DNA from: Planctomycetota bacterium | GTDB taxonomy: Bacteria > Planctomycetota > PLA2 | Direction: 5' to 3' | Length of the DNA stretch: 64,000 nucleotides | NCBI GenBank assembly: GCA_021776735.1 | Contig: JAJFFH010000049.1 | Span: 5,523 to 69,522, forward strand | Notes under the pieces: generated by a model | What the model saw: the letters and a program-made list of their open reading frames with translations, nothing else | Databases searched by the model: none | Told to the model about the DNA's origin: nothing | Program-made: the position numbers and the translations under genes | Part shown: positions 1,498 to 30,381 of the stretch, piece by piece | Numbering within the stretch: position 1 is the stretch's first letter | Layout: the number at the start of each line of letters is the position of its first letter

Positions 1498-2418
1498 CTA
1501 TTTCTTACCCTTCTTGTTGGCGTTCTTGGCCGGCTTCATCACCTTGGCTTCTTTGCGCAGCTTCTCGATCAGCTTGGTGAAGGCCTCGGTCGTGATGCGG
1601 CCGGTGAAGTTGTTGAAGCGGACGACGCCCTTCGCGTCGCGGACGACGGTCCACGGCGTGCCGCCGGTGCCGTTCGTGGCCATCGTCGTGCTGAGTCGGG
1701 CGCCGTCGATGTGACCGTCGAAGCCGACCGGCACCGTCACGCCGTGACGCTTGGCCGCGGGCGGGCCGCGTTCGGGCGTGTTGGTTTGCGTGCCCTCCCA
1801 GACGGTCTGGAGATGCATGAACACGACGTCCTTGGCCTTGGCGAACTTCTGTTCCATCTCACGGTGGCGCGGGAACCCCACGCTGTGGCACCCCGGTCAC
1901 CAACTCTGGAACGTGTGCAGGACCAGGACCTTGCCCTTGGTGTTCTCCGGCGTCGGCGGCTCTTCGCCGTCCGCCACGTTGGCCCACTTGTACGCGTACC
2001 ACGGCAGCATCGCGTGGCCCGTGGGGCCGCCCGCGCGCGTGCCGCGCCGCTGTTGCGCGAGCGCGCCGCGATACGCCCGGCGCGCAACGAGCGTCGCCTT
2101 CACCGTGGCCTTCTTGCCTTTGCGCGTGTAGACCACGTCCACCTTGTCGCCGGCCCCGGCGGACCGCAGCGCCGCATCGACATCGGGCGCGCGCCTGATC
2201 GTCTTGCCGTTGATCTCGAGCAAGACATCGCCGTCCGTCAGCTTTGCCTTTTGGGCGGGCGAATCCTTGAGCACGTGCCCGATCACGACACCCTTTTTCG
2301 TCTCCGCCGAGACGATGCCGAGCAACGCGTCGTTTTGTGAGCGGTGATGGCCCTGGGCGAAGGCGACTTGGGCGAGAAGCAAAGAGGCCGTAAGCACACG
2401 GACGGCGATGTTTCGCAT
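1498..2418 (-). CDS. Exported PDZ + TlpA/redoxin-like thioredoxin-fold protein with in-frame UGA (1897..1899) read as selenocysteine (W-U-P-G-C)
   Basis: ORFs 1897..3375 (C-terminal part) and 1498..1881 are in the same frame and separated only by TGA. N-terminus MRNIAVRVLTASLLLAQVAFA is a signal peptide. PDZ-like stretch LLGIVSAETKKGVVIGHVLKDSPAQKAKLTDGDVLLEINGKTI. Thioredoxin fold KGKVLVLHTFQSW-U-PGCH...KDVVFMHLQ...HGVTVPVGFDG...TPWTVVRDAKGVVRFNN...EAFTKLIEKL. Hairpin 1867..1883 lies 13 nt 3' of the UGA. Confidence 0.75.
2393..2413 (-). repeat. Dispersed motif copy overlapping the start codon of the 1498..2418 gene (encodes M-R-N-I-A-V-R-V)
   Basis: AGCACACGGACGGCGATGTTT. Confidence 0.7.
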
Positions 2419-2468
2419 GCGATGAAGCCTAAACCCGCGTTGTCGGGCGTGCCACGCCCGTTTTGGGG

Positions 2469-3086
2469 CTACTTCGAGGCCGGGCGGCGGCGGCGTTTTT
2501 TTTGGGTCGGGGCCTCGTCGCCCCACTGGGTCCAGCCTTCGCGCGGGTGGCGGGCGAACATCTCCAGGTAGGGGCCGGGGCTGCAGGACTCCACGATGTC
2601 GTAGAACTCGTCGGGCTTGCGGCTGTGCTCGCGCTTGCGGGTGGCGAGCAGGTTCACCTGCCGGCGGCCGGGGGCCAGCGTGCGCATCGAGCCGCGCACG
2701 CCGAACAGGATCATCTCCGTGACGTTGCGGAAGTAAAAGCCGACTCCGCGCCCGTCCGGACCGCCGTCTTTGCGGACCTTGAACCAGACCAGGTTCGACT
2801 TGTACTTGAATCCCCAGGCGTCGAGCACCTCGAGCCCCTCGCGGATCAGCGCGTTGGGGCACCACAGGTAGAGGTGGCTTTTTTGGGCGGCGACCTCGGG
2901 CACGGGCAGCGCCAGGATTTCCTTGTGGGTCATCGTGCCGTAGCGCCGCAGCCGCTTGTGTTCGGGCGCCACTTTGCCGGTCCGGTTTTCGAACTGCCAC
3001 GGCGGATCCGCAAGAATCGTCTGAAACCCGTGCTCGCCGAGGGCGAGCAGGGTCCGGGCGGGGGCGTTTTTCCGGCGCGAGATCAT
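2469..3086 (-). CDS. MT-A70 family DNA N6-adenine methyltransferase (DPPW motif)
   Basis: 205 aa. ILADPPWQFENRTGK...YGTMTHKEILALPV...GFKYKSNLVWFKVRKDG matches the MT-A70/DPPW catalytic signature. Confidence 0.85.
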   Translation of the reverse strand: MISRRKNAPARTLLALGEHGFQTILADPPWQFENRTGKVAPEHKRLRRYGTMTHKEILALPVPEVAAQKSHLYLWCPNALIREGLEVLDAWGFKYKSNLVWFKVRKDGGPDGRGVGFYFRNVTEMILFGVRGSMRTLAPGRRQVNLLATRKREHSRKPDEFYDIVESCSPGPYLEMFARHPREGWTQWGDEAPTQKKRRRRPASK

Positions 3087-3142
3087 GGGAAGGCGCTAGT
3101 GGAGCATGCCGCACCCCCAAGGGGGCGCGCCAGAGCAGTGTT

Positions 3143-3847
3143 TCAGAGTAGCGTCGCCGCGCCGGTGGTCGTTTCCCCGTCGACGAGCGCTGCCGTGATG
3201 CCGAAGACCGCGATCGGGCAGCCGCCGCCCGCGCCGCCGCGCAGGCGGGGGAGGAGCCGGCCCATGTGGGTGGTCGCGGCGCCATAGCTGCTGTACTTGC
3301 CCAGCCGGCGAAACACGTCGTCGAGGTCGTCGGAACGTGTGACGATGACCCCGACGCTGACGACGTGCAGGTCAAACAGCAGCCGGAAGTTGTTTAGGTC
3401 GCGGTCGTAGAACGGATCCTTGTTGTTCCATTCGATTTCGAGCGCGATGCGGCCCTTGAAACAGTCGATCTTGTGCGTGGGGGACTCGTGGCGTTTGCCG
3501 TCCACGACGATGCTGGTGTCGAATCCGCGTTCCTCCCAGCCCAACGCCTCGAGCGCGCCGTCCAGCGAATGCGCGATCGCGCTCTTGTTCCCGCCGCCCG
3601 CGGCGATGTCTCTTTCCGCGAGCCGAAAGGCCGAAAGCACGCCCTCGATCTCCGCCCATTCCCGCGGAAACGCGCCGGTCAGGATCGCAAGCGCATGGCG
3701 CCACTCGTGCACCTCCCACCCGGGAAGCCGCGCGCGCACGTCTTCGACGTAGGTGCTCACCCCGAAAGAGTGCGCGCACGCGGCCCGAAACTCAATATTT
3801 GGCGCCGCTACCCGGTCTATTCGGTGCCGGTCGAACGTTCTTTCCAT
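3143..3847 (-). CDS. Putative Type II restriction endonuclease, BamHI-like PD-(D/E)XK fold
   Basis: Real start MERTFDRH inside ORF 3143..4558 (the upstream part is Arg-rich antisense junk). KIDCFKGRIALEIEWNNKD resembles the BamHI catalytic D...E-x-E segment. Directly adjacent to the MTase. Confidence 0.55.
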   Translation of the reverse strand: MERTFDRHRIDRVAAPNIEFRAACAHSFGVSTYVEDVRARLPGWEVHEWRHALAILTGAFPREWAEIEGVLSAFRLAERDIAAGGGNKSAIAHSLDGALEALGWEERGFDTSIVVDGKRHESPTHKIDCFKGRIALEIEWNNKDPFYDRDLNNFRLLFDLHVVSVGVIVTRSDDLDDVFRRLGKYSSYGAATTHMGRLLPRLRGGAGGGCPIAVFGITAALVDGETTTGAATLL

Positions 3848-4974
3848 TCGGGGGCGTGGCGGTCGTAGTCGCGCATCGCGCGCTGGACGGCCGATGCCAG
3901 CATCTGCGGCGAGCACATGTTGCGGCGGTCCGCGCTCTTCTTTTGGAGCTCGGCGTTCGGATACGGCGAGCCGGTGTCGGACGCCGCGGTCCAGGCGCGC
4001 CGCACAAGGCGGTCGTTCGGCCGGTTCTTCAAGATCCAGCCGAAGTGGAAGTTCGCCCAAGACATGGCGTCGAGGTGGTAGCACGCCTTGCCCGCCAAAA
4101 AGTGCAGCTCCGCCGAGAAACGAGTCGCCTCGTGCGCCTTGGCCGCCGGCTCGAGCATCTTGCGCGCGGCGGCCCACTTCTTTTGGTCCGTCAAGCGGTA
4201 GCCGTCCTCGACCGCGACGGGCGCGGCGTGTTTCTTGCCGGCGCGGAGCGGCGCGAGCAGCGCCTGTTGCGTTTTCCAGTCCTGGCGATAGCGCGCCAGA
4301 CGCGCCCGCGCGATCGCGTTGCCGTTCTTGGCGTACAACTTGTCCGCGTCGTCGTAGCGGCCGAGCTCGTCCAGCAGTCGCGCCGTCGCGGCGTCGCCCT
4401 TCACCAGGGCCTGTCTCTCGTCGGCCGTGGGCGCGGCGTACTGCGGATACTTCGCGAGCAGTTCCTGCAGCCAAACGAACACGTCGTTTTTGTCGGCGTA
4501 GATGCCGGTGCTCGACAGGTACTTGCCGTCCGGCGTAAACGCCGCGAAGAACGCCCACTTGTTGGGTACCTTCCCGCGCACGAAGTCCTTCGCCGCCTGG
4601 TCCTGTCCCTGGCCATGCGAACCCGTGGCGAAAAAGACCGGCACAAACCGGCGGTTGATCAGATCAATGACACGTTTTTCAGCGAAGGCACCTGCCCTCA
4701 TCGGTTCCGCGCCAGGTCACCAACTTCCCGCGGTGGCGCATGTAGCCCCCTTGGCATCGATCCCGAACGAGATTCCCTTGAGCACCAACAACCGGTTTCG
4801 CGCCTTCGCCGCCGCGCGCGCCTTGTCGAATTGCCCCGGCAGGAACCACCGAATCGACGACGTGTCGCTGGTCGTGTCGGCCTTCGGTTTTTGGGCCTCG
4901 GGAACATCAGCCGCAACAAGAAGCTGCACGACGGCGATGCACCCAACAATCAAAAACAAAGAAAAACGACGCAT
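3817..4974 (-). CDS. Exported Thioredoxin_7/DsbD-gamma-like protein with in-frame UGA (4717..4719) read as selenocysteine (S-W-U-P-G-A)
   Basis: ORFs 4717..4974 (signal peptide MRRFSLFLIVGCIAVVQLLVAA) and 3817..4701 are in the same frame and separated only by TGA. The read-through gives ...LLVLKGISFGIDAKGATCATAGSW-U-PGAEPMRAGAFAEKRVIDLINRRFVPVFF. This aligns with Thioredoxin_7 W-C-x-x-C followed by vfsdpevaellnenfvpv. Confidence 0.7.
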
Positions 4975-5061
4975 GGATCAGACCTCCACAAGCACTACGC
5001 GAACGAGGGAGTCCGCCTCCCGGTTGACGCAGTTTTTGACAGAGCGGGTCTCGCAAAAAAG

Positions 5062-5079
5062 CATCGCCGTCGGTTTGCT
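5062..5079 (+). repeat. Dispersed motif copy (1 mismatch), about 85 nt upstream of the 3817..4974 gene
   Basis: CATCGCCGTCGGTTTGCT preceded by an A6 run. Confidence 0.6.
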
Positions 5080-5113
5080 GTCCTTTGCGGGCCCAAGCCC
5101 GCAAGCCTTAACG

Positions 5114-5134
5114 AAAATCGCCCATGGCGATTTT
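5114..5134 (-). terminator. Perfect palindrome AAAATCGCC-CATG-GCGATTTT downstream of the HEAT-repeat gene
   Basis: 9-bp arms flanked by A/T runs immediately 3' of the gene ending at 5144. Confidence 0.4.
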
Positions 5135-5143
5135 CGCAGCGGC

Positions 5144-5897
5144 CTAACCCTTGCCCTTCTTGTCCCAGTCCTTGGTCCCGTTGTCCTTGAGCCAAGCCTC
5201 CCACGCCGCGGAGCTGTTCAGCTTTTCGCCGGTCAACGCGGTCAGGGTCTCGCCGAACGCGGGCTTGCAGATCTTGTAGCGCTTCATCTGCGCGGAATCC
5301 GCGGCCTTGCCGCCGGCGGCGAGCTCCACGCGCTTGAACTGCTTGGCGAGACCTTTCGCGATGATCTTGCGCCATTTCAGGGAGAGGGTCGGGAATTGGC
5401 CGCACGCGCGGATCGCGGCGGCGGCCACGTCCGGATCCTTGGAGATGCCGGTCATCTTCAGGAGGACCGGGGCTGCGTGGTTCGAGCCGCACTTGGCGAG
5501 CGCGTCGATGATGCCGACCTTCTGCGCGGCGGGGCGCTTGGCCTTGAAGCGCGTCATCAGTTTCGTGCGGCCCGTCTTGCCGCCCGCCGCGAGCATGCGG
5601 GCCGTTGCATTCAGGAACGCGGTGTCCAGGTCGTACTTCTTGCTGTACGCGCGATCGAGTTCGAACACGATCCGTATCTGGGCCTTCCTGCTCGCCTTGG
5701 GCAGGTGCTTCTTGATGCGCTCCTCGATGCTGCTCATGCTGCCGCTCGACATGCCGAGCACATGCCGGCGGAATTCGACGATCGCCCCCCATGCCTGGCG
5801 GGTGTCGGCCGGGCCGGCCGTGGCGATGGGGGTCCAGAGGAGCAGAATCCAAAAGACAAGGAGGGGGGCGGGGGCGGCGAGGCGGATGCGCTTCACG
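5144..5897 (-). CDS. Secreted HEAT-repeat protein (hypothetical)
   Basis: Signal peptide (V)KRIRLAAPAPLLVFWILLLWTPIATA. HEAT-like repeats VGIIDALAKCGSNHAAPVLL...DPDVAAAAIRACGQF. The N-terminal part of ORF 5144..6274 is antisense junk. Confidence 0.6.
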
Positions 5898-6969
5898 ATG
5901 ATCCTCCCGGAAGCAGAACGTGGTCGGTGCGTGGGCAGTACAGGTACCACGCACTGCCGGTGCTGATCAGCGTGACCTTGATCGCCGTCTTTCCGTCGGT
6001 GGTCTTCAGGTGCACCGTGGCCTTGGCCCACAGTCCGTGGTGGTCGATTTCCTTGACCGAGAACGACTTGACGAGCGGTCCGACGAGGGTCGCGTCCTTT
6101 TGGGCGGCCTCGCGAAAGCTCGTGAGCGCCTCGTAGGCGCCGCCGGTTCCGCGCAGGATCGGCGAGTACGACGCCCAAAACGCCTTGCGAAACTCGTGCA
6201 GGTTGATCAGGCGCCCGGTGCCGCAGCACTCCTCGCACTCCGTGCCGTCCGAGAACTTGCCTTCGCCGCGACACAGGGCGTGGCGGGCGGCGATCTTTTT
6301 GCGCGCTCCCAGCCAGCTCTTGATGCGGGCGCGGATTCGGCGACCGTCGCGCTTTTGCGTGCGCGCGGTGTCCTCGTCGTCCGGCGGCTCCGGCGCGTCC
6401 AGGTCCAGGGCGACGGGTACCGCGGGCGGCTTGCCCGCGTCAAACGAAACCGCGGCCACAATCTCGTTCGCGACGTCGTCCGGATCCGGCGGATTCGCAG
6501 CGTGGTCGGACTTGTCCTCGCGCGGCTCTTTCTTCGGGCCGGGTTCGGGCTTCGGCTCTTGTTTCGGGTCGGGCTTTGCGGGCTCCGGTTGGCCGCCGGA
6601 GTTTTTTCGCGCCTGCACTTTCTTGTGCTGTTTGAGCCAGAACAGGTGGGCGCGCATCTTGAACGCGTGGCGGGATGCGAGCGAGAGCCGCGCGCGAATC
6701 CCGGCGTGTTCCTCGATCTCAAGTGCCTTTTCAAACTGCGCGAGGCCCGCGTCGTACTTGGCGACGATCGTCTTGACCAGCGCCAGGCGTTCGTCGCCCT
6801 CGGGTTCGTCGAGAATCAGCTTCTTCCAGAGCTGATGCCCCTCCCGGCACAGCGCGACGCCCTTGTCGGTGAGTTTTTTGGCCTTCGGACCGAGCTCGCC
6901 CGCATAACCGGCGACCGCAACGATCCCCAGGAGCACGCCCGCCCGGAGGGCACGAATTCCCCATTGCAT
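5893..6969 (-). CDS. Secreted hypothetical protein with Cys-rich zinc-ribbon-like segment
   Basis: 358 aa. Signal peptide MQWGIRALRAGVLLGIVAVAGYA. Cys-rich segment CRGEGKFSDGTECEECCGTGRL. Pro/Lys-rich linker. Last gene of a sigma/anti-sigma operon. Confidence 0.65.
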   Translation of the reverse strand: MQWGIRALRAGVLLGIVAVAGYAGELGPKAKKLTDKGVALCREGHQLWKKLILDEPEGDERLALVKTIVAKYDAGLAQFEKALEIEEHAGIRARLSLASRHAFKMRAHLFWLKQHKKVQARKNSGGQPEPAKPDPKQEPKPEPGPKKEPREDKSDHAANPPDPDDVANEIVAAVSFDAGKPPAVPVALDLDAPEPPDDEDTARTQKRDGRRIRARIKSWLGARKKIAARHALCRGEGKFSDGTECEECCGTGRLINLHEFRKAFWASYSPILRGTGGAYEALTSFREAAQKDATLVGPLVKSFSVKEIDHHGLWAKATVHLKTTDGKTAIKVTLISTGSAWYLYCPRTDHVLLPGGSS

Positions 6970-7312: not shown

Positions 7313-8037
7313 CGTTTCCGGTCTCCTCGCATCGGCGTTGAAGCCGTGTCCAGGAGCGTGCCCACACCCGTCGCGTCAAAACCGCTGCGCTCCAGTGCGG
7401 TGCGGAGTTTCTTGCGCGCGTCGTGGCCGACTTTGTAGACCGCGTTGGGTTTCGTATCGAGGCGCTCGGCCAGGCGTGTCAGCGGAATACCCGCCAGCTC
7501 GCCCAGGACGACGTGGCGCTGACGCTCGGTCAGTTCCGTGTCGATCGCATGACGCAATGCGGCGAACAGTTCGTTGCGTTCGACGCCTTGACCGGCCTTG
7601 TCCGGTTCCACCAGCGCGGCGTCCACCAGGGGTCCATCGAATTGGGCGAGTTGCGCGCTCGTGCGTTCGACGGACCAGCGGCGCTTGCGCAGCTCGGTGA
7701 GCGCGACGCGAATTGCCACGGCGGTGGCCCATGTCGAGAAACGCGCGTCCCCGCGAAACGAATCGAGTGACGCGAGGATGCGCAGGCACGCGTCCTGCGT
7801 GAAATCGTCGAGATCGGCAGCGGACACGTTGCCTCGTGGCCCGAGTACCACGCCGAGTTTTCGGCGGACGAGCCGGTGCAGCTCCGTGACCGCGGCGTTG
7901 TCGCCGGATGCAAGGTCCGCGATCCAATCGGGTTCGTGCCCAAGCGGCGCCACGTCGTGATCGTAGGCGCTGGCCCGGTGTGCCGACAAGAAAACCGAAA
8001 AAAGCAAACGGACGGCGAGGTAAGAGGCGGCACGCAA
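7309..8037 (-). CDS. ECF RNA polymerase sigma factor (start codon uncertain)
   Basis: Region 2 (LDDFTQDACLRILASLDSF) and region 4 (ERQRHVVLGELAGIPLTRLAERLDTKPNAVYKVGHDARKKL). The 5' end contains a dispersed-motif copy (8003..8020). Confidence 0.85.
   Translation of the reverse strand: MRAASYLAVRLLFSVFLSAHRASAYDHDVAPLGHEPDWIADLASGDNAAVTELHRLVRRKLGVVLGPRGNVSAADLDDFTQDACLRILASLDSFRGDARFSTWATAVAIRVALTELRKRRWSVERTSAQLAQFDGPLVDAALVEPDKAGQGVERNELFAALRHAIDTELTERQRHVVLGELAGIPLTRLAERLDTKPNAVYKVGHDARKKLRTALERSGFDATGVGTLLDTASTPMRGDRKR
8003..8020 (-). repeat. Dispersed motif copy at the 5' end of the ECF sigma gene
   Basis: AGCAAACGGACGGCGAGG preceded by CCGAAAAA. Confidence 0.6.
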
Positions 8038-8097
8038 GACGCGTCAAGGGGGCGGCAGGCACGAGTCAGCCTGCATGGATCGCAATCAGGAGACACC

Positions 8098-8499
8098 ATG
8101 GCCCACATCCGGCTGTTTGAAGAAGACGGCGACGAGCGAGCGCGCGTCCTGCAACAGGGCCTGCGGAAAGCGCTTGGGTTCTTGCCCGGGACGTACCAGG
8201 CGATGGGACGTAGCGGCCGTTTTCTCGAGCCTTTCCTGCGCCTCGAAAACGCCGCCGGCGCCAACCTTGACCGGAAGGCGCGCGAACTGATCGCGATCGC
8301 GGTCAGCGCGGCGAACGGTTGCGGCTACTGCGTCCACGCGCATCGCTCGCTGGCCCTGAAGGCCGGATGCTCGGAGGAGGAGATCACGGGAGCGATCGAG
8401 GTCGCGGCCGTGATCAGCGCGAGCAACACCTTTAACAAGGCCACCGGCCTGACCCACGACATCACACCCGAGGTCGTCGGCGTCGCTGCCGAGGGCTGA
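8098..8499 (+). CDS. AhpD-like / carboxymuconolactone decarboxylase-family peroxidase-related protein (CxxC)
   Basis: MAHIRLFEED...GCGYCVHAHRSLALKAG. AGGAGA RBS 7 nt upstream of the ATG. Confidence 0.85.
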   Translation: MAHIRLFEEDGDERARVLQQGLRKALGFLPGTYQAMGRSGRFLEPFLRLENAAGANLDRKARELIAIAVSAANGCGYCVHAHRSLALKAGCSEEEITGAIEVAAVISASNTFNKATGLTHDITPEVVGVAAEG

Positions 8500-8568: not shown

Positions 8569-9438
8569 ATGAGTCGCTTCACCCGAAACTCTCTTCTCGC
8601 GGTCGTGCTGGTCGCCGCCGTCGTTGATGCCGGCGATACCTACGTGGGCGCGGATCGCGCGCGTCCCTACACGCTCACCGTTGCGATGAGCGGCTACAGC
8701 CCGGTCTCTTATCTCGACCAGAACAAGGCCGAGCCCGGTTCGCCGCGCTTTGCGGCCAAGCACGACGGCCTGACGTACTTCTTCACCTCGGCGCGTCAGC
8801 GGCGTGCGTTTCGCGACAACCCCGAGCGGTATCTTCCGGCGTACGGCGGCTACTGCGCGTACGGGTGCGCGGTCAAGGCCAAGGTCGTCGTGGATCCGCG
8901 GAACTTCAAGATCGTCAACGGGCGTACGCACCTGTTTTTCAAGAACGCCAAGGTGGACACGCTTGAGCTGTGGAACAAGGGCAGCGAGTCCGAGTTGACC
9001 GCCAGGGCCGATCGGTACTGGGCGACGCAGGGCGTCAGCCGGGCGTATCTCGGTGCGCGCTATTTGCCGGCGAGCGGCGTCGCGCTGGACGGATACAGTC
9101 CCGTGTCGTACTTCACGCGCGGTCGCGCCGAAAAGGGCGATGCGCGCTACGCCGTCGAGCATCAGGGCGTGACCTACTACGTGGCGTCAAAGGGCCAGGC
9201 CAAGCTGTTCAAGAAGAACCCGGACCGCTACGTGCCGCAGTACGGCGGCTGGTGTGCGTTCGGCATGGCGGTCCGAGACAAGTTCCCGGTCGATCCGACA
9301 TCATTCAAGGTCGTCGATGACAAGCTGTACATGTTCTTGAAGAACACGTCCGTTGACGCCAGAATGCTCTGGAACAAGGGCTCCGAGCGCGAACTCATGA
9401 AGAAGGCAAGCACCCACTGGAACAAGGTCTCGGGCTAA
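8569..9438 (+). CDS. Secreted tandem YHS-domain protein
   Basis: Two repeats of GYSPVSY...YFF(T)S...R..F..NPERY.P.YGG.CA.G. Signal peptide. AAGGAG RBS. Confidence 0.8.
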   Translation: MSRFTRNSLLAVVLVAAVVDAGDTYVGADRARPYTLTVAMSGYSPVSYLDQNKAEPGSPRFAAKHDGLTYFFTSARQRRAFRDNPERYLPAYGGYCAYGCAVKAKVVVDPRNFKIVNGRTHLFFKNAKVDTLELWNKGSESELTARADRYWATQGVSRAYLGARYLPASGVALDGYSPVSYFTRGRAEKGDARYAVEHQGVTYYVASKGQAKLFKKNPDRYVPQYGGWCAFGMAVRDKFPVDPTSFKVVDDKLYMFLKNTSVDARMLWNKGSERELMKKASTHWNKVSG

Positions 9439-14993: not shown

Positions 14994-17900
14994 ATGGACG
15001 ACGCGCCCGAGGTGGAAGCTCTGCTGGCCCATGGCCGCTTTCTTCGTGCTCTTGCGCGCGACATTCTGCGCGACGCGCATCAGGCGGAGGACGTCGTGCA
15101 GGAGGCGTGGTTACGCGCCAGGAATCGAGCGCCGCGCAAGGCCGGAGCGATGCGGGCATGGCTCGCGCGCATCGTGCGCAATCTGGCGCTCGATCGGGTC
15201 CGCGCGGAACAGGCGAGGCGCCAGCGGGAAGTAGCCGTGGGCCGGGCAGCCGTGCGTCAGGGACGGACGGCGATGTCTGTGCCGCCGCCGGATGTGGCCG
15301 CACGGTTCGAGGTGCAAAAACGCACCGCCGACGCCGTTCTGGATCTTCCCGAGCCGTATCGATCGACGATCCTGATGCGGTACTTCGAAGACCTCGCGCC
15401 CCGAGAGATTGCGCGGCGGGTCGGCGTGCCGGGCGCGACCGTGCGCACGCGTGTCCGGCGCGGCCTGGCGATGTTGCGCAAGGCGCTGGACGAACGGTAT
15501 GGCCGGCGCGCGTGGCCCGCACTACTGGTCGTGGGAGGAGGCGTGATGGCGAAACTCAAGGGAGCGGCTGTTGTTGCCGCCGTTCTGGCTGTGATTGCGT
15601 TGACCGTGTGGCGGGTGCGGGCGGACCCGGAGCGGACCCGCGGACGTTCCTCGGAGGGGCGCCGGGCCGCCTCGACATCATCCGGATTGACGTTGGCAGA
15701 CAGCGCCGGCGACACGGTGTCGCATCGGTCGCGTCGCATCCTGAGCGGCGTCGTTCTCGAGACGTCCGGCCGACCCGCGTCCGGGGCCGTCGTCCGCTGG
15801 CGGCTGCGGCAGCCCGACCTCGGTTGGCAGCCCTTTCGGCATTCCGCTTTGCACAGCGGCTCGGCGACGTGTGACGACGCCGGGCGATTTCGGCTCTCGG
15901 TAGATCGTCGTGCCGGATCCCTGTCCGCAGTCAAGGACGGCGATGTCTCTCCGGACTGGGAGGTCGGAACCGGCGATCCCGGCGCTGGCCTGGTGCTGCA
16001 CCTGCGTACACCTGTTTCGGTCGTGATCAGGGTGATTGAAAATCGCGATCGACCCGTCACCGGCGCCCAGGTTCGCGTGGCGCCAACTCTGCTCGGTCCC
16101 TTCGCCGGCGACGTGCACGACGGGGCGACGGATTCGAGCGGTCGCGTGCGGATCGCAGGAGTGCAGCCCGGGTTCGCGTCGGTCGTCGTTCGTGCCGCTG
16201 GGTATGTGACGGCGGTGCGGCGTGCCGTGCGATTGCCCGGGAATGACGTCGTCGTTCGTCTGCGTCGGGGCCGTCCATTCTTTGGCATTGTCTGCGATGC
16301 CGGCGCCGTGCCGGTACAAGACGCTCGTGTGCGTTGGGTCTCGGCGCATGAACACGCCCTGGGCGGTGAGCAGCGCACCGACGCCGGGGGGCGGTTCTTG
16401 GTTCCCGCGCTACCGGCTGGGAGGATCGCGTTTTTCGTGGAGGCCGGTGCGACAGGGCAGGCGTATCACGTCTGTGCGCGGCCGGCGGGCCGGAGCGTGG
16501 GGGAGCGGCAACGATTCGCGCTGGATCCGCCCGTCGGGCTCGAGGGGCGCGTGTGGATGGGCGAGAAGAGCGCGCGGCGGCCGCTGGTGGGAATCCCGGT
16601 ACGGGTTTCCGGCGCCGAGTTTTTTCATGTGACGAACCGCGGCACGTTCGGTGTTCGCGTCATTCGTTTCGGGTCTCTATCGCGGCGAGCCGTCACGGAC
16701 GCCGACGGTCGTTTTGCATTCGCCGGACTTTCGCACCGGGCCACGCAACTCAGCCTTGCGCCGCCGTTCTACGTTGTGAAGCGGCTTGCCGGCGGCGACG
16801 TGCAGGCGGCGCGTGCGGGCCGGGTGCACGGGACCGTTCGCGACGAAGCTGGTCGTCCGGTCGCCGGCGCGGTCGTCTTGCGTCCCGGCGGCGAGGGTTA
16901 TCGCAACATCACCAACGCCAAGGGACAGTATGAATTGTCCCTTGTTCCGGGGGCGAAACGGGCCGTGCGTCTCGACGTGTTCAAAGACGGATTCACGCGC
17001 GTGCAGCGAGGCGTCTCGTCGGCCGGAGCGATCGACTTTCGGTTGGCGCGAGTGTCTTCGATCGACGGCCGCGTTGTATCCGCCGCCGGGCGGCCTATTC
17101 TCGGCGTGAAGGTCGGACCCGTGCGCAACACGGTCTTCACCGATCGCGATGGTCGGTTTCGTTTCTTCCGAAGCCCGGAAACGACCAGCGTCCCGTTCGT
17201 CCACGAATCCTACGAGTATCGGAGCGTGGAGCTTTCGGACGAAGCGACAGTCGTGCTCTCGCCGGCCCCGGTCCGTGTCTTCGTCCGGGGGCGGGTTCTG
17301 GACACGAAGGGAGAGCCGATCGGAGAAGCGGACGTGACCTGGCGATCCGAAGGGAGGCACGAGGCTGCCATAACCGACGGCCGCGGCCGTTTCGAGCTCG
17401 GCCTCGCGGCGGGTGCCTGGACCGTCGTGGTCGAACGCGACGGCTACGCTCCGTGGCGGCGCGAGGATGTCGATGTGCCGCGGGCCGAGCTCCTGGAGAT
17501 CATCGTGCGATCGGGCTCGTCGATTGCCGGTCGCGTCGTGGACGCAGGGGGCGCCGCCGTCGCGGGAGCGACCGTGATCGTTTCTGGTCCCCGCGACGCT
17601 GGCAAGGCACGAAACTGGCGCGCGACGACCGGTGTGGACGGCGGCTTTCACGTGGACGATCTGCCCCATGGACAGTTCGCGGTCATTGCCGCCGGCCCGA
17701 GCTCGGCGGCCGGCCACGACCGGGCTCATGACGTAGCTGCGGACACGGTCGACCTGGAGCTGCGTTTTGCCGCGTCTCGAGCACTGAGCGGCCGCGTGTT
17801 CGATCCGGATGGCCGGCCGTGGCCGGGCGTCGGGATCGTCGTGCGCGTCACCGACGCGGACTTGCGGCGGCACCGACTGCGACGTGATCGTGTCAGCGCG

Positions 17901-18380
17901 GTAACGGACGGTGACGGCCGCTTTCACGTCAAGGGGCTCCACGGTACCCACGCCACGATCGCAGTTGACACGAATCGCGGCTCACGCGCGGAGACCTACA
18001 TGCAGCAGGATCTGCGCGTGGAGCCGGGACAGCGCGACATCGAGATTCGGGTGCGGACCGAACGGACGATCACCGGTCGCGTGCTGGATCCGAAGGGGGC
18101 GCCTGTCGCTGGCGTATGGGTCTCGATCACAGATGTCGCGACCAGCAGCGGCGCGCGGCTGACCACGGACGGCGATGGGCGGTTCCGATTCCATGGCCGG
18201 AGTCGGGCGACCTACGAGTTTTCCGCGTCCGCCCGCCGCATTCCGTTTGGCCCCGGCATGTGGGGCTTCGCGTGGGCAGGCAAAACGACCGCCGGTGCCG
18301 GGACGAATTCGGTGACGGTCGCGTTGCAGGTGGATCAAAACGCGGTTCGGATGGCGGAGCGCGCCCGCCGTGGCCGGTGA
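14994..18380 (+). CDS. ECF sigma factor fused in frame to a TM helix and about 900 aa of CarboxypepD_reg-like repeats
   Basis: N-terminal 180 aa carry sigma region 2 (EDVVQEAWLRA) and region 4 (LDLPEPYRSTILMRYFEDLAPREIARRVGVPGATVRTRVRRGLAMLRKAL). This is followed by TM helix MAKLKGAAVVAAVLAVIALTVW. Then come repeated GRVVDAGGAAVAGATVIVSGP / GRVLDPKGAPVAGVWVSI / TDGDGRFRF units. There is no stop codon between the parts. Confidence 0.8.
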   Translation: MDDAPEVEALLAHGRFLRALARDILRDAHQAEDVVQEAWLRARNRAPRKAGAMRAWLARIVRNLALDRVRAEQARRQREVAVGRAAVRQGRTAMSVPPPDVAARFEVQKRTADAVLDLPEPYRSTILMRYFEDLAPREIARRVGVPGATVRTRVRRGLAMLRKALDERYGRRAWPALLVVGGGVMAKLKGAAVVAAVLAVIALTVWRVRADPERTRGRSSEGRRAASTSSGLTLADSAGDTVSHRSRRILSGVVLETSGRPASGAVVRWRLRQPDLGWQPFRHSALHSGSATCDDAGRFRLSVDRRAGSLSAVKDGDVSPDWEVGTGDPGAGLVLHLRTPVSVVIRVIENRDRPVTGAQVRVAPTLLGPFAGDVHDGATDSSGRVRIAGVQPGFASVVVRAAGYVTAVRRAVRLPGNDVVVRLRRGRPFFGIVCDAGAVPVQDARVRWVSAHEHALGGEQRTDAGGRFLVPALPAGRIAFFVEAGATGQAYHVCARPAGRSVGERQRFALDPPVGLEGRVWMGEKSARRPLVGIPVRVSGAEFFHVTNRGTFGVRVIRFGSLSRRAVTDADGRFAFAGLSHRATQLSLAPPFYVVKRLAGGDVQAARAGRVHGTVRDEAGRPVAGAVVLRPGGEGYRNITNAKGQYELSLVPGAKRAVRLDVFKDGFTRVQRGVSSAGAIDFRLARVSSIDGRVVSAAGRPILGVKVGPVRNTVFTDRDGRFRFFRSPETTSVPFVHESYEYRSVELSDEATVVLSPAPVRVFVRGRVLDTKGEPIGEADVTWRSEGRHEAAITDGRGRFELGLAAGAWTVVVERDGYAPWRREDVDVPRAELLEIIVRSGSSIAGRVVDAGGAAVAGATVIVSGPRDAGKARNWRATTGVDGGFHVDDLPHGQFAVIAAGPSSAAGHDRAHDVAADTVDLELRFAASRALSGRVFDPDGRPWPGVGIVVRVTDADLRRHRLRRDRVSAVTDGDGRFHVKGLHGTHATIAVDTNRGSRAETYMQQDLRVEPGQRDIEIRVRTERTITGRVLDPKGAPVAGVWVSITDVATSSGARLTTDGDGRFRFHGRSRATYEFSASARRIPFGPGMWGFAWAGKTTAGAGTNSVTVALQVDQNAVRMAERARRGR
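15261..15278 (-). repeat. Dispersed motif copy inside the sigma-fusion gene linker (encodes G-R-T-A-M-S)
   Basis: GGACGGACGGCGATGTCT. Confidence 0.65.
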
Positions 18381-20948: not shown

Positions 20949-22196
20949 ATGAAAACGGGCGTCATCCTCCTCTTGCTCGGCGGCCTCGTGATGGCCCAGA
21001 GCAATCGCTTCGAAAAGCCGGTGCGGCTCAAGGCTGCCGGGAAGGTCATTACGACCGAGGTCGGCCACTCCGCGCCGTATGTGTACGATTGGGACGGCGA
21101 CGGCGTGCGTGATCTGTTGGTCGGGCAGTTCGGCCAGGGCAAGCTGCGCATCTTTCGCAATGCGGGCACGAACAAGGCGCCGCGCTACGAGGAGGGCGTG
21201 TGGTTTCAGGCGGGCGGTGCGCTGGCGACCGTTCCCGCGGGGTGATGCGTCGGTTTTGGTCCGCAGTTGGCGGACCTCAATGGCGATGGGCACGACGACG
21301 TCCTGAGCGGGTCGTACTGGCCCGGGAACATCTTTGTCTTTGACGGCGAAGGCAAAGCGATGTTTGCCAAGCGCCGGGCGCTCGTCGATGAATCGGGTCA
21401 AAAGCTGCACGGGGCGACGCCGTGGCCGGACGAGAAGACTCCCAACATGGACAGCCTCGCTGCGGCGCCGTGGCTCATCGACTTCGATGCCGACGGCGAT
21501 CTCGATCTCCTGATCGGCAACATCGCGGGGCGCGTCATCTTGATCGACAACCTGGGGTCGAAGAAGGCGCCGAAGTTTGCGCGTACGCGCGTGCGGCTGC
21601 AGGCGGGCGGCAAGGATATCCGCGTGCCCGGAGGAGATGCCGGTCCGACGACGGTGGATTGGGACGGCGACGGAAAGTGGGATCTGCTGGTCGGCGCCGG
21701 TGATGGATCGGTCTGGTGGTATCGCAATGTCGGACGCAACGGGGCGCCCGAGTTCGCCGCCGGTGTGAGGCTTATTGACGCGCCGGCACGGGGCGGCGGA
21801 CCGGTGCCGTGGACGGACGAGCCGAAGGAACACGGTTCGCGCACCAAGGTTCATGCGGTCGATTACGACGGCGACGGGCGCCTCGATCTGCTGGTGGGCG
21901 ATTTCAACATGCTCAAGCAGGCCGAGCCCAGGCTGAGCGAGACGCAGACCCAAAAGCGCGACGCGTTGCGTGCGGAGCGGTCCGAACTGCAGACGCGGCT
22001 CAACGACGTGTTCAAGAAGTACAAAACCTTGGAGGACAGGGCCAAACGTGAAGCGGCGATGAAGCCGATCACCGCGCGGTTCACCGCGATCTTCAACGAG
22101 CTGCGCCCCTTCGAGGCCAAAAACGACCCGACCGGATGGGTCTGGCTGTTCGTGCGCAAGACACCTGCCGACTCGAACGCGCCTGTGGGCGAGTAG
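20949..22196 (+). CDS. Secreted FG-GAP/VCBS-repeat (beta-propeller) protein interrupted by in-frame TGA at 21243..21245 (candidate Sec codon or pseudogene)
   Basis: ORFs 20919..21245 and 21267..22196 share a frame and are separated only by TGA. The repeat unit continues across it (...ATVPAG-U-CVGFGPQLADLNGDGHDDVL). A perfect 7-bp hairpin GGTCCGC-AGTTG-GCGGACC (21258..21276) lies 12 nt 3' of the TGA. Confidence 0.55.
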
Positions 22197-25273: not shown

Positions 25274-26143
25274 ATGAAATGGAGAGGCCGTCGCCAGAGC
25301 AGCAACGTGGAAGACCGCCGTACGCGCGGAGGGCGCAGCATGGCGATGAAGGGGGGCGTCGGCGCCATCGTCATCGCGCTGATCGCCGCGTTCATGGGGG
25401 GGGATGTCGGGAAGCTGCTGAACCAGTTTACGAGTGGGGGGCTCGGGGGCGCCACGTCGTCCGGCCGGCCGCTGACCGCGGAAGAGAAGAAAGTCGGCGC
25501 GTTCATCAGTGTTGTGGTGGCCGATACCGAGGAGGTCTGGCAGAAGCTGTTTTCGCACGCCGGGCGGCGCTACGAGGAGCCCAAGGTCGTGCTCTATCGC
25601 GACAAGGTGAAATGGGCCGGCGGCACGGCCGACAAGGGCATGGGGCCGTTTTACAGTCCGACCGACAAGACCGTGTTCCTGGATCCGACGTTTTTCGAGG
25701 AACTCGCGCGCAAACTCGGGGCGCCGGGAGACTTCGCGCAGGCCTACGTCATCGCGCACGAGATCGGGCATCACGTCCAGAACCTGCTCGGTGCGTCGGG
25801 CCGCGTGCATGCGGCCCGGCGTCGCGTGAGCAAGATCGCGTACAACCGACTGTCGGTGCGTCTCGAACTGCAGGCAGACTTTTTGGCCGGAGTGTGGGCG
25901 CACCACATGCAGAAGAAACACCGGTTCCTCGAAGAGGGCGACATCGAGGAGGCGCTGCGCGCGGCAACGGCGGTGGGCGACGACACGCTATCGCGCGGTC
26001 GCGCCGCGATCGAGTCGTTCACCCACGGCTCGGCGAGACAGCGCGTCGCCTGGTTTCGCCACGGTTTTCGCACCGGCCGGCTCGAAGCGGGCGACACGTT
26101 CGACGACAAGGTGTTTCGCCGCGTAGACCCGGGCCCGCGCTGA
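25274..26143 (+). CDS. YpfJ-like neutral zinc metallopeptidase (Zn_peptidase_2)
   Basis: MKWRGRRQSSNVEDRR N-terminus. TM helix. HEIGHHVQN zinc motif. Confidence 0.9.
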   Translation: MKWRGRRQSSNVEDRRTRGGRSMAMKGGVGAIVIALIAAFMGGDVGKLLNQFTSGGLGGATSSGRPLTAEEKKVGAFISVVVADTEEVWQKLFSHAGRRYEEPKVVLYRDKVKWAGGTADKGMGPFYSPTDKTVFLDPTFFEELARKLGAPGDFAQAYVIAHEIGHHVQNLLGASGRVHAARRRVSKIAYNRLSVRLELQADFLAGVWAHHMQKKHRFLEEGDIEEALRAATAVGDDTLSRGRAAIESFTHGSARQRVAWFRHGFRTGRLEAGDTFDDKVFRRVDPGPR

Positions 26144-26237
26144 CGCGCGCCATCGCGAATAGGCGTCCGCGAAGCGGACTCTTGGGCACTACACTTGGTA
26201 GGGCTTCCGTTGATGGACGAGACCGGGATATCGCTGC

Positions 26238-28529
26238 ATGAGATACATACTCGCCCTTGCCCTGTTGGCCTCCGCCTGCTCCTCTTCGTCGCGTCTTGCC
26301 CTGATCGCCGTGGAGCACGACGGATCCCGCAACGGGATCGTCGTCATCCGCTTTGACCGGCCGGTCGATCCGGCGACGGTGAACGCGGCGAACGTGTCGA
26401 TTCCGGATGCCGTCGGGGCTCTGTCGGTCGTCGGCAACGAGGTGCGCTTTGAGCCGCGGCTGCCGGTGCTTGCCGATACGAGCGACGCCGGACTCGAACC
26501 CGACCGCGCGTACGAAGTCACGGTGTCAGCCGACGTGCGCGGACTCGACGGCAGCGGCATGGGTGGCACCTTCGCCGCGACAATCGCGACCGGTCCGGGC
26601 TTTTCGGATCCGGTCGAGGGCGCGCTGGCGGTGGCCTCCACGACGCCGGCTCAGGGCGAGAGCGGTGTGGGCACCATCGTTGGGATCGGGCCGGGTCCAT
26701 GCGCGGTCTTTGTTCGCCTCGACCCGATCGTGATCGAGTTCGACCAGCCGGTTGCGCCTCCGAGTGTGGCCGGCAGCGTGACCGTCAGAAACCTCACCGA
26801 ACCCGACTTTCGTCTGCAGGTCATGACGAAGCTGCTGCAGGGGGGGGCGGGGGCGCCGCGGATCGAGCTTGCGGTGGAGGGAGTAGACACGCCGTTCGAG
26901 AATGGTGTACTGCTCGGACGGTACGAGGTGGTGATCGATGGCTTGACCGATCTGGGCGGTGCGGCCCTGTCCTTCACGTTCTCGTTTTCCACTGTGGCCC
27001 AGGTGTCCCTGCCGACCGACGTGCGATTCTCGTTCGCCGACGATGACGCGGACGGTGGTGTCGATGTAGGCGGGCTGGCTACGGCGATCAACGATACCAA
27101 TGAGCTCCCCAGTCACGTCGGACCGTTCCTGGGCGGATTGCTGACGCGCCAGCCGGGGGTCGATCCGGCTTCGCCGCTCGCCGTCGAGACGACGGCCAAC
27201 TGGGGCGGCGTCGCGTACTGGACCGGCCGCGAGATGCGTTACAACAACGCGACCTCGATCGCGGCGTCGTTGCGTCTGCGCGGCGGTACGGTCGGTGCGG
27301 CGACTCCTGTCTTGTCTCCGCTCGCGGGGACCGGCGCCAACGGCGACCTCCTCCTGACCGGGACGGAGACGCGCGACCTGTTCACCGGCGACGCGACGAC
27401 GGGACCGATCGCGCACCACTTCCGCCGCATTCGCATCACCGCCACGGATGCAGGACGCCCGGTCTTGAAGGGCCACGGGCTCTTCCCGCTCGTGCTCTTC
27501 GCCGAGGAGGACGCCGTGATCACCGGCGACATCGACGTGCGCGGCGTGCAAGCCTCCGGCGAGGCGGGCGGAGCCGCGGGACCGGGTGGTGGACCCGGCG
27601 GGGACGCGAACGAGAGAGGTGCGTCTCCGCACAACGTGCACGGCGCGATTGCCGGCGCAACCAGCGGTCAGGGCGCGGCGGCTCTCGACCCGAGCGGCGA
27701 CTTTACCGATCCCGACGTGCTCGCGTGTGGAGGTGCAGGCGGACAAGGGGCGTTCGCAAATGGGGGGGGCGGGGGCGGCGGCCTCGTCTGTCTGGCCAGC
27801 GCGGGCGATCTCGTTCTGGCCGCGGACGGTCACGCGGCGTCGGTGCACGCAAACGGTGGCGCCGCGATCGGGGGCGCGCAGTCCGGCGGCGACGGCGGAA
27901 TCGTGCTCGTCAGTGGAGGCACGTTGACCCGCGGCGGTGCGACGCTGGACGTCGGATCCGGTGGGCGCATTTACCTGGCCGATGCGCCCGGCACCGGTGG
28001 CATTGAGGTGTACGGCGACGAGCCGCGCGAGCCCGGCTTCGGCCGCAGCCAGATCGTTTCGGAGTTCCTCGACATGTTCGCCGACGCGTCGACGCTGGAC
28101 AGCGTCCGGGTGTTGTCGAACGCGCCGCGTTTTCCGTACGACATCGCCGACGCCGCGCAGCGCACGATCCGCGTTTTCGTCGATAGCACGGACGCTCGCC
28201 CCGACGGCAGTCCTGATCTCGACGAGATCCGCACCATCGAGATCGATTTGCATGTACGCACACCCGATGGAGCCGCGACATCGGCCGCGCAGTTCGAGGC
28301 GTTCGCAATCGTGCCGAGCGACGCCGATCCCGCACGTTTTTGGCGTGTCCGTATCGTGTTCGACCTTGCAAATGTGGGCGATCCCGACGCCCTGAAGAAC
28401 ACGTTCGCGCTACCAGGAGCGGCCACCTTGCCGATCGCCCCGGACAACTCGTTTGCCGATCAGACCGAGGCCCCCGAAGGCGTCCCCGCCGTCAGCGAAA
28501 TCCGTCTACGAATCACGCCGGGTTGCTAG
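26238..28529 (+). CDS. Large lipoprotein with Gly-rich beta-helix-like repeats (hypothetical)
   Basis: Lipobox LALALLASAC. Gly-rich region GGAGGQGAFANGGGGGGGLVCLASAGDLVLAADGH... Confidence 0.75.
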   Translation: MRYILALALLASACSSSSRLALIAVEHDGSRNGIVVIRFDRPVDPATVNAANVSIPDAVGALSVVGNEVRFEPRLPVLADTSDAGLEPDRAYEVTVSADVRGLDGSGMGGTFAATIATGPGFSDPVEGALAVASTTPAQGESGVGTIVGIGPGPCAVFVRLDPIVIEFDQPVAPPSVAGSVTVRNLTEPDFRLQVMTKLLQGGAGAPRIELAVEGVDTPFENGVLLGRYEVVIDGLTDLGGAALSFTFSFSTVAQVSLPTDVRFSFADDDADGGVDVGGLATAINDTNELPSHVGPFLGGLLTRQPGVDPASPLAVETTANWGGVAYWTGREMRYNNATSIAASLRLRGGTVGAATPVLSPLAGTGANGDLLLTGTETRDLFTGDATTGPIAHHFRRIRITATDAGRPVLKGHGLFPLVLFAEEDAVITGDIDVRGVQASGEAGGAAGPGGGPGGDANERGASPHNVHGAIAGATSGQGAAALDPSGDFTDPDVLACGGAGGQGAFANGGGGGGGLVCLASAGDLVLAADGHAASVHANGGAAIGGAQSGGDGGIVLVSGGTLTRGGATLDVGSGGRIYLADAPGTGGIEVYGDEPREPGFGRSQIVSEFLDMFADASTLDSVRVLSNAPRFPYDIADAAQRTIRVFVDSTDARPDGSPDLDEIRTIEIDLHVRTPDGAATSAAQFEAFAIVPSDADPARFWRVRIVFDLANVGDPDALKNTFALPGAATLPIAPDNSFADQTEAPEGVPAVSEIRLRITPGC

Positions 28530-29161
28530 CCCGTTGTGTCCGGGTCCACGAGGTCCACGTTGACCGTTTCGGTTTGGTCTACGACCGGGGAGGAGCCGTC
28601 CGGGAACAGGCGTTCGATCTGGAGGCGGACCGGGAACACGCTCACGTTGTCTTCGGTGTCGCCGAAGAACGAGAACTGACTTGTGCGTACCGACAAGAAC
28701 AACAAGTTGTCGACGCCGTCTTCAAAGAACTGTTCGACGCTGATCTCGTCCACGAAAAAGCCCGTGCCGCCGGTCGGCTGGAAGAATGCGAGGCCGCTCG
28801 GGCGGCCCGCGCGCGGGTCGCCGTTGTTGAGAAACACGAGACTGCCCTCCGCGCCCTGCCACACGACGTTGTCCAAAATGACCTGGTACAGATCGCTGTT
28901 GAAGCAAAAACCGAGGCCCTCTTCGGCGACGAACACGATGCGGTCCGCGGTGCGGTAGGCATAAAACGCGTCGATGCGCGCGCAGAGCGTCCCGCCCGGA
29001 CCGAGACCCTGGCCGTGGATCATGGTGCCCGGCAGGATCTCGTCGGTCACGATCGTCACGGTAGCGACGAGGCCCTGGGAGCCGAAGATCAAGAGCGTGC
29101 TACTGGTGCCGCCGCCGCATCCGGCGAGCAGGGCGAGGAAGAGGATCAGGGTGCGGATCAT
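28526..29161 (-). CDS. Lipoprotein (hypothetical)
   Basis: Lipobox LALLAGCGGG. 211 aa. Confidence 0.7.
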   Translation of the reverse strand: MIRTLILFLALLAGCGGGTSSTLLIFGSQGLVATVTIVTDEILPGTMIHGQGLGPGGTLCARIDAFYAYRTADRIVFVAEEGLGFCFNSDLYQVILDNVVWQGAEGSLVFLNNGDPRAGRPSGLAFFQPTGGTGFFVDEISVEQFFEDGVDNLLFLSVRTSQFSFFGDTEDNVSVFPVRLQIERLFPDGSSPVVDQTETVNVDLVDPDTTG

Positions 29162-30381
29162 TTGTGGTCACCGTAACCGGCGCCGGAAGGACGGATGACC
29201 CAATCCGCCTCGTAGAACTCGAGCAGCGTCGGCGGAATTCTCACACCCGGTGACGCGAGCCTGAAGTAGAACCCGACCTTGCCCGGTTTGGGGTCCTTGC
29301 CGCGTCCGTCGTTACCCGTGCGGCCCGTACGCTTGCCGACCGCGATCACCTTGAAGGCGACAAAACGCTGCCGCTTCAGGTCGTATGAAACCGTGCCTCG
29401 CAGCGTCGCGTTCATCGTGCGCGGCCAGTCGCGGTCCGGCGTCCAATCCGTCTTTCCTAGGAGCCACGGGCCTTTGGCGACAGCCCTCGTTGTCCCCGAA
29501 ACGGTCAGCCTCAAGAGATCGCCGTCCGTACGCTTTTTTTCGAGGGTTATCTCCGCGTGCACGATCTCGCTCGCGGCGAACGGAAGTGTCTGGCCGCGTA
29601 CGTTGTCGATCAGGTGAAACCGCGCCAGGCGCAGCGCCAGGCTGCGCGGCATTTTCTTTGTCTTGTCGGTCTTGCCGGGGAGCAACGAATTCGCCTCGTC
29701 TTTCGTGAACCAGACGAAGTCGCGGTTCCAGCGGCGGTCGCCCCCCTTGATGTCGCGCACGAACCGCTCGAGTATCAGGCCGCCTTTCGGGTAGCTCTGC
29801 TCCCAGCGATGTTTGGGCGTGAACTTGGACCCGGGCGGGAGTCTCCTGTCGGCGGGTTCCAACGCCTTCCATTTTTTCTTCGCGAGATCGAGCATCGCCA
29901 CGATCTTTTCCACATTGCCGGTGTTCGCCGAGGCGAGCAGCTTGCCACTCGGTGCGATGACGTAGTAGCCCTGCTTGGTGCCGCCCTTGCCCTTGTAGTG
30001 GCCGAGGACGGCGAAGCTCTGGAAGAAGCGGCACTCCGGCCCGGTGCCGTTCTGCAGCCGCCAGGTTTCGTCGGCGGCGAGGGTGAAGTGTTTTTTCAAG
30101 AGCCCGCGCACAAGCGGGTCGCGAAAGACGGACCGCCGGCCCGTCACGCCGTTGTTTCACGTGCAGCCGAGTGGGTGGCCGTTCATGACCCACAAAAACA
30201 ACGGTTGCTGCCGTGCGTGCGCCGTCTTCAGGCCCTCCGCGAAGCTGGGGAACCACGGCAGGCGGTCGGCAGCGAGCTCCTTTTTGGTCGGAAGGATGTG
30301 ATCGCCGCGCGGGTACACGCCCGGCGGGTCTTGGGCGGCAACGACGGTGGTCAGGAAGAGGACCGCGATGACAGAGCGCAT
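29158..30381 (-). CDS. Exported Thioredoxin_7/DsbD-gamma-like protein with in-frame UGA (30157..30159) read as selenocysteine (G-C-T-U); paralog of 3817..4974
   Basis: ORFs 30157..30381 (signal peptide MRSVIAVLFLTTVVAAQ) and 29158..30147 share a frame and are separated only by TGA. Read-through gives ...QQPLFLWVMNGHPLGCT-U-NNGVTGRRSVFRDPLVRGLLKKHFTLA, which aligns with Thioredoxin_7. An 8-bp hairpin (30127..30145) lies 11 nt 3' of the UGA. Confidence 0.7.
29517..29542 (+). repeat. Dispersed motif variant inside the 29158..30381 gene
   Basis: GATCGCCGTCCGTACGCTTTTTTTCG. Confidence 0.45.

Follow-up and report, generated by a model that had tools for sequence, protein, structure and literature searches.

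Four genes with an in-frame UGA, probably encoding secreted selenoproteins, within 30 kb of a Planctomycetota contig

We analysed 64,000 nucleotides of DNA from a Planctomycetota bacterium (GTDB lineage Bacteria; Planctomycetota; PLA2), positions 5,523 to 69,522 of contig JAJFFH010000049.1 in assembly GCA_021776735.1. In this stretch, referred to as the window, four genes (A, B, C and D; Table 1) each contain a single in-frame TGA. Our interpretation, to which we assign a probability of about 0.88, is that they encode four secreted selenoproteins, the one UGA in each being read as selenocysteine (Sec, U) through SelB and a selenocysteine insertion sequence (SECIS). A sequence-only reading of the same DNA had proposed recoding for A, B and C, and described for each a signal peptide, a thioredoxin fold, a UGA at the redox-active position and a GC hairpin 11–14 nt further on. 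The three genes were confirmed to begin with a signal peptide and to contain a single in-frame TGA, before and after which the coding sequence is intact, and recoding is the best reading for the three genes as well as for D, a fourth gene with an in-frame TGA which was found by a six-frame scan of the window. Judged gene by gene from the sequence comparisons, B, C and D very probably encode Sec, and A probably does so.

Genes were called from GC content at third codon positions (GC3) and from Pfam matches. The GC content varies between 63 and 70% across the window, and GC3 is of the coding type (0.71–0.91) on either side of the TGA in all four genes. The coding signal on both sides is accompanied by protein conservation: domain matches span or flank the site (Redoxin and FG-GAP), and the mean pairwise identity among members of the C family is 62% in the 35 residues before the TGA versus 57% in the 35 residues after it. 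TGA otherwise serves as a normal stop codon, as had been claimed from the sequence. It terminates 13 of the 34 confident genes (TAG, 16; TAA, 5), and the code is therefore standard, with TGA not reassigned. That TGA might have become a sense codon for Trp or Gly throughout the genome, as it has in genetic codes 4 and 25, could be argued from distant homologues of D, which have Gly in the TGA column. This explanation is extremely improbable, as the well-supported genes that end at TGA are followed by new starts and signal peptides, the in-frame TGAs occur once per gene and at redox-type positions only, with those of A and C aligning to Cys, and a GC content of 66% is unlike that of the known code-4 and code-25 lineages.

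The decisive evidence for Sec is comparative, because the hairpins following the TGAs do not by themselves exceed chance. Comparison of independent loci, one of the checks that the sequence-only reading had called for, found the TGA kept at 81 of 81 loci for C, six of six for B and six of six for D, with the protein conserved on both sides; for A, all homologues have Cys at this position. The loci for C comprise 80 from a scan with one genome per species (Planctomycetota, Marinimicrobia/Neomarinimicrobiota and others) and that of Phycisphaerae bacterium RAS1. In none of them is the codon TAA or TAG, and it always lies within the invariant motif W-x-MNGHPLGCT-U-[G/N/A]NG. With the stop codon usage of the window, and with shared ancestry ignored, the chance of finding only TGA is approximately 1e-34. 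RAS1 (GCA_007859745.1) is a cultured isolate and carries the TGA upstream of RAS1_40040, which excludes metagenome binning artefacts.

The public annotation of C is P0009, a protein of 329 aa that corresponds to the part behind the TGA. A homologue search yielded 233 clusters, and all 120 of the 120 listed start at or after query residue 79, the TGA being codon 75. A start codon (ATG, GTG or TTG) is present within 12 codons past the TGA in only 26 of the 81 loci, so the downstream part has no conserved start of its own. A profile search of 1.84 billion representatives gave 1584 clusters (50% identity), and an N-terminal extension was seen in about six of the best 150 matches. Five full-length relatives were inspected; the U column is occupied by Cys in three (P0370, P0376 and P0366), by Ser in one and by Ala in one. 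A Sec/Cys pair therefore exists in the C family, the Cys forms being rare. Two of the rare full-length members lack the redox residues (P0316, GHPLG-S-A-S; P0381, C-T-A) and may be redox-inactive variants.

The hairpin of C is conserved as a structure. In an alignment of 52 sequences covering 60 nt from the TGA, columns 15–22 and 26–33 can pair in 86% of cells, compared with 31–52% when the partners are slid. Compensatory changes occur in four pairs (15 cells), including a change from C-G to U-A, and none of 500 shuffles reached the observed value. The G in the loop is invariant.

The thioredoxin fold that the sequence-only reading had assigned to A, B and C stands for A on Pfam evidence and for C on a predicted structure, and for B only through its remote homology to C. 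AlphaFold modelled the post-TGA fragment of C with a predicted local distance difference test (pLDDT) value of 90, and the natural Cys form P0370 with a pLDDT of 84.8 and a predicted template modelling score (pTM) of 0.86. In the P0370 model, strand b1 (54–59) is followed by a loop containing C68, which occupies the U position, and then by a1, b2, a2, b3, b4 and a3, the order expected of a thioredoxin fold, in which the nucleophile stands at the N-terminal end of a1. The C-terminal domain of C, about 230 residues long and beta-rich, has no confident structural relative. Matches to Pfam Thioredoxin_7 (PF13899) and Thioredox_DsbH (PF03190) stayed below the gathering threshold, the best having an E value of 0.0029 in four of 20 C members; C and B each gave one weak DsbH match, also under threshold. 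A search of PDB sequences with B and C profiles gave nothing significant (top match AGR3, E 0.44), nor did hhalign comparison of B or C with a TlpA alignment. B and C differ from domains of the Thioredoxin_7, DsbH, DsbD-gamma and AGR types (PDB 3f9u, 2ju5, 1vrs, 3ph9) in having C-x-U (C) or C-x6-U (B) instead of CxxC, and a large added C-terminal domain for which no confident structural relative was found. In C, moreover, Sec forms far outnumber Cys forms.

The six B loci come from independent assemblies (the window and L001, L002, L099, L100 and L101), and the position of the TGA is identical in all of them, in the context KG-[I/V]-[S/A]-FG-x-D-x-x-GA-x-CAT-x-G-x-W-U-P. The family has eight members in the database: P0001, which is the post-TGA part of B itself (294 aa), and seven homologues, each of which begins at a Met six codons past the TGA. 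The N-terminal domain of B is remotely related to that of C, and its C-terminal domain is without known function; Pfam and NCBIfam gave no match. The claim that two of the three genes first described are paralogs holds only in the sense of remote homology between B and C. Their N-terminal domains align by hhalign with 81% probability (E 1.2e-5, 125 columns, U on U), but B and C do not match significantly by BLASTP (E about 3). A and B have only the pentapeptide SW-U-PG in common. Most likely, B is a divergent thioredoxin-fold relative of C. On the metagenome contig L101 (1688–2628), rhodanese and DoxX/MauE genes are located directly downstream of the B-family gene, a neighbourhood that hints at sulphur/selenium trafficking or a thiol-redox setting.

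Alternatively, the TGAs might be real stops that separate a short secreted N-terminal peptide from an independent downstream protein (coupled split genes), or they might be read through without Sec, for example by a Cys-charged tRNA-Sec-like tRNA. Some members do have a start soon after the TGA, namely a GTG in C of the window and the ATG six codons on in B, and a search for Sec machinery that covered the window and 60 related loci found none. The cut would, however, fall between b1 and a1 of the thioredoxin fold, at the catalytic residue. The downstream pieces would be without signal peptides, most C loci are devoid of a nearby start, the stop is always TGA and never TAA or TAG, and the hairpin is kept at the distance expected of a SECIS. 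We consider these explanations improbable and recoding to Sec the better account.

D belongs to the FG-GAP/VCBS repeat proteins, as PF13517 (FG-GAP_3) matches four stretches of it with an E value of 1.3e-23 (83.8 bits, cut-off 26.9). Sixteen metagenome loci were compared, and in the five closer ones (L083, L084, L085, L086 and L089; 29–50% identity) a TGA followed by a Cys codon is found at the aligned position. All six Sec forms, D of the window included, thus have TGA-Cys. All six also have a hairpin of 6–8 bp which begins 12–13 nt past the codon and carries a G/U-rich loop. The stems differ in sequence yet pair: GGUCCGC/GCGGACC, GGUCCAC/GUGGACC, CAAUCGC/GCGAUUG and CAGUUGC/GUGACUG. The hairpin of D itself has a Z value of -2.2 versus shuffles.

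Vicinal Cys and Sec residues are not without precedent; mammalian thioredoxin reductase ends in GCUG. The bacterial inventory lists CU in MerB-like SaoL, HgcA and KCU-star, and GxUC in 2Fe-2S proteins of the CopZ family (PMC13188914, Table 1). Like these proteins, D has a vicinal pair (G-U-C), which might close into an eight-membered selenenylsulfide ring or coordinate a soft metal. Unlike them, it is an FG-GAP/VCBS repeat protein, a fold that is absent among the 119 inventoried families, and in the literature searched no paper connected FG-GAP proteins and selenocysteine in this way.

A is a member of the TlpA/Redoxin thiol:disulfide oxidoreductases. Homology searches (phmmer type) matched it to TlpA-family proteins with E values of 1e-30 to 1e-37, and its active site aligns with theirs as W-[U/C]-P-G-C. 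Pfam identified a PDZ_2 domain (E 3.8e-14), and a Redoxin/Thioredoxin_2 match runs across the TGA; the Redoxin match (residues 156–270, E 7.4e-5) scored 23 bits, below the gathering cut-off of 26.6. In 11 of 11 aligned homologues, the TGA column is the first Cys of CxxC. The closest relatives, P0130–P0133 (PDZ plus redoxin, 48–51% identity), and many TlpA-family proteins read FQSW-C-PGCH at this site. Downstream of the TGA, A continues for 132 codons with no further stop or frameshift and a GC3 of 0.91, and all family-invariant residues of this part are retained. The NCBI annotation contains P0129 only, a 173-aa N-terminal piece.

UxxC TlpA/Redoxin-like selenoproteins are a known kind (PMC13188914, Table 1), and by its predicted sequence A is one of them. 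It shares with them the fold, the W-U-x-x-C centre, the exported location and an abundance of Cys homologues; it differs in the additional N-terminal PDZ domain and in that its nearest relatives, P0130–P0133, are all Cys forms. It falls outside the NCBIfam model for a Trx7/PDZ domain-containing (seleno)protein (NF041199), for which 300 bits are required; A reached 34, all of them from its PDZ region.

Another possibility is that the genes are pseudogenes, their TGAs having arisen by inactivating nonsense mutation or through errors of assembly. In favour of this, A is the sole member of its family with a TGA, P0130–P0133 having TGC or TGT, one base change away, and the contig, 86 kb long, comes from a draft assembly. 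Random decay could not, however, produce the same TGA codon in B, C and D across six, 81 and six independent assemblies. In A the TGA is located exactly at the codon for the catalytic Cys, the codons behind it are intact, and there are three more Sec genes in the same 30 kb. Decay or error is thus an unlikely explanation for the four genes. For A, a single Sec form without a Sec orthologue, a recent nonsense mutation is the remaining, less probable alternative; we favour Sec here too because the TGA coincides with the catalytic Cys codon, the downstream domain is undecayed and three further Sec genes are nearby.

Insertion of Sec by SelB at a SECIS of the Escherichia coli fdhF type is the established bacterial mechanism. 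The model of the bacterial SECIS has been described (PMC12013277, PMC2398784). The hairpins of A–D resemble this type in being stem-loops within the coding region about 11–16 nt past the UGA whose small apical loop contains G, often as GU or GG; they differ in that their stems are short (5–8 bp) and GC-rich, and binding of SelB to them is putative. A GC hairpin had been predicted downstream of each TGA. It is present in all four genes, with its core beginning 11–16 nt after the codon, but taken as single sequences these hairpins are no better than the GC-rich background. When the folds behind all codon positions of the same gene were ranked, the post-TGA fold came 30th of 291 in A, 183rd of 370 in B, 21st of 392 in C and second of 400 in D. 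An apical-loop G together with covariation was found in C, and D has different stems at the same place. For A and B a SECIS stem-loop was not demonstrable by this test, even though all six B members have a hairpin, its loop including the GG from a conserved Gly codon and its register shifting slightly between members.

Several results weigh against recoding or fail to support it. Besides the lack of significance of the single-sequence hairpins, the consensus hairpin of the six B sequences reaches only -3 kcal/mol, with no compensatory pair or covariation and no fixed register, and the Cys-form orthologue of A, L102, folds as stably after its TGC as A does after its TGA. No Cys-form homologue of B was found in the family comparison, and no second Sec form of A among the homologues compared, all of which have Cys. 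In the distant D homologues, the U column holds Gly, giving Gly-Cys (once C-G-G-C), and only the following Cys is conserved. Finally, neither selA, selB, selD nor tRNA-Sec was detected in the 64 kb of the window (Pfam on about 30 genes, Rfam, ARAGORN), where the Rfam scan revealed tRNA-Pro only; 60 related loci likewise contained no sel gene and, by ARAGORN, no tRNA-Sec. The genes selA, selB and selD have been documented in several Planctomycetes (PMC4807772).

If the UGAs are decoded as Sec, a SECIS stem-loop in the coding sequence, 11–16 nt past the codon, would recruit the complex of SelB, GTP and Sec-tRNA(Sec) to the ribosome, and translation would go on instead of stopping. We infer dependence on SelB from this model, as well as export of the products by the Sec secretion pathway through their N-terminal signal peptides. 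Sec-type signal peptides were recognized by eye in A (MRNIAVRVLTASLLLAQVAFA/QG), B (MRRFSLFLIVGCIAVVQLLVAA/DV) and C (MRSVIAVLFLTTVVAA/QD). A, with its U-x-x-C centre, would probably act as a reductant or isomerase. In B and C, Sec would open helix alpha-1, where thioredoxin-fold proteins classically carry their nucleophile, and a Cys close by, in C-x-U for C and in C-x6-U for B, would probably form a selenenylsulfide during turnover, as the resolving Cys. In D, a protein of the beta-propeller type, the U-C pair would suit a selenenylsulfide switch or the binding of a soft metal.

For a comparison with curated families, we used NCBIfam release 20 (June 2026; E <= 0.01) and the 2026 inventory of 119 families (Table 1 of PMC13188914). 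B, C and D did not match any NCBIfam model at this threshold, and no row of the inventory corresponds to them; the BSepDB tables and Haft and Tolstoy (2025) were outside the comparison. Above the Pfam threshold there was no match for B and C, and FG-GAP only for D. On this basis we put at even odds that B, C and D are three undescribed selenoprotein families, with D the first selenoprotein of the beta-propeller (FG-GAP) kind, and one with a U-C dyad. On this reading C is a very large family that contains Sec almost without exception, with members among Planctomycetota from the sea and from soil, among Marinimicrobia and in one isolate in culture. While recoding as a mechanism is textbook knowledge, three apparently uncatalogued families, one of them very large, and the density of exported Sec genes are what is of interest here.

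Table 1. Genes, in-frame TGA codons and hairpins (positions in the window)
Feature	Position	Strand	Description
Gene A	1498..2418	-	Exported PDZ + TlpA/Redoxin-like thiol:disulfide oxidoreductase, 306 codons, active site W-U-P-G-C (UxxC)
In-frame TGA of A, proposed Sec174	1897..1899	-	Context FQSW-U-PGCH
Hairpin of A	1867..1883	-	RNA fold GCGUGGG-GUU-CCCGCGC, core 13 nt past codon
Gene B	3817..4974	-	Exported protein, 385 codons, motif GA-x-C-A-T-x-G-x-W-U-P
In-frame TGA of B, proposed Sec86	4717..4719	-	Context AGSW-U-PGAE
Hairpin of B, weak evidence	4683..4700	-	UGAGGGC-AGGU-GCCUUCG
Gene D	20949..22196	+	Exported FG-GAP/VCBS repeat protein, 415 codons, vicinal G-U-C motif, signal peptide
In-frame TGA of D, proposed Sec99	21243..21245	+	Context VPAG-U-CVGF
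Hairpin of D	21258..21276	+	GGUCCGC-AGUUG-GCGGACC, begins 12 nt past codon
Gene C	29158..30381	-	Exported protein, 407 codons; N-terminal thioredoxin-fold domain, motif MNGHPLG-C-T-U-xNG (CxU); C-terminal beta-rich domain
In-frame TGA of C, proposed Sec75	30157..30159	-	Context LGCT-U-NNG
SECIS-like hairpin of C	30127..30145	-	GACGGGCC-GGC-GGUCCGUC, begins 11 nt past codon

The location of A, B and C on the minus strand, stressed in the sequence-only reading, is correct for these three genes but incidental as a pattern, since D, a gene of the same kind, is on the plus strand. Between A and B, a restriction–modification pair had been proposed. Only an MT-A70 methyltransferase gene was identified there (2469–3086, minus strand; Pfam E 6e-33), and no restriction enzyme was found. 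The 730 nt from this gene to B (3087–3816) showed no coding GC3 frame and no match to Pfam or Rfam. Three other pairs of open reading frames, in frame with each other and split by TGA (34836/35526, 51372/50337 and 7771/8500), were rejected, being adjacent genes of the usual kind that have start codons and signal peptides of their own.

Two plus-strand genes between B and D encode Cys forms of proteins from families with Sec forms known elsewhere (PMC13188914, Table 1): an AhpD/CMD-like protein with the motif GCGYCVHAH (7771–8499) and an exported double YHS-domain protein with YGGYCAYG and YGGWCAFG (8569–9438). At 14994–18380, also on the plus strand, a single open reading frame of 1128 codons combines N-terminal sigma-70 regions 2 and 4 of the extracytoplasmic function (ECF) type with seven CarboxypepD_reg repeats and Ig-like domains. 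The region 40537–53216 contains a glycosylation cluster with an STT3/AglB-like oligosaccharyltransferase (PF02516, PF18079), an initiating sugar transferase, an ABC-2 exporter pair, GT4 and GT2 glycosyltransferases and a radical SAM/SPASM protein.

The expectation that annotation would miss the recoding is supported. Gene callers take the UGA as a stop, and public records contain only halves: on this contig, A, B and C are represented only by the truncated products P0129, P0001 and P0009, and the truncation extends across the families, with relatives, RAS1_40040 included, annotated as fragments of a ‘hypothetical protein’. Published pipelines for selenoprotein discovery lean on Cys homologues (PMC12013277, PMC2398784), which would explain why C, a family made up almost entirely of Sec forms, has been overlooked. 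Catalogues of selenoproteins derive mostly from searches for TGA/Cys pairs and for homologues of families already known. A family with Sec in nearly all members and no curated model therefore stays invisible, its thousands of database entries being truncated ‘hypothetical proteins’. Three new profile models could enable annotation pipelines to rescue the B, C and D genes, and as RAS1, a strain in culture, has a C-family gene, the prediction is open to direct test. Acceptance of B, C and D would mean that three families are added to the about 119 now inventoried, one of them very abundant in ocean Planctomycetota and Marinimicrobia, and that the use of Sec extends to a beta-propeller scaffold. 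It would also point to selenium-dependent redox chemistry, in the periplasm or at the cell surface, in a phylum where the biology of selenium has barely been studied. Four Sec genes within 30 kb would further suggest a lineage whose selenoproteome is large, mostly extracytoplasmic and hidden by current annotation.

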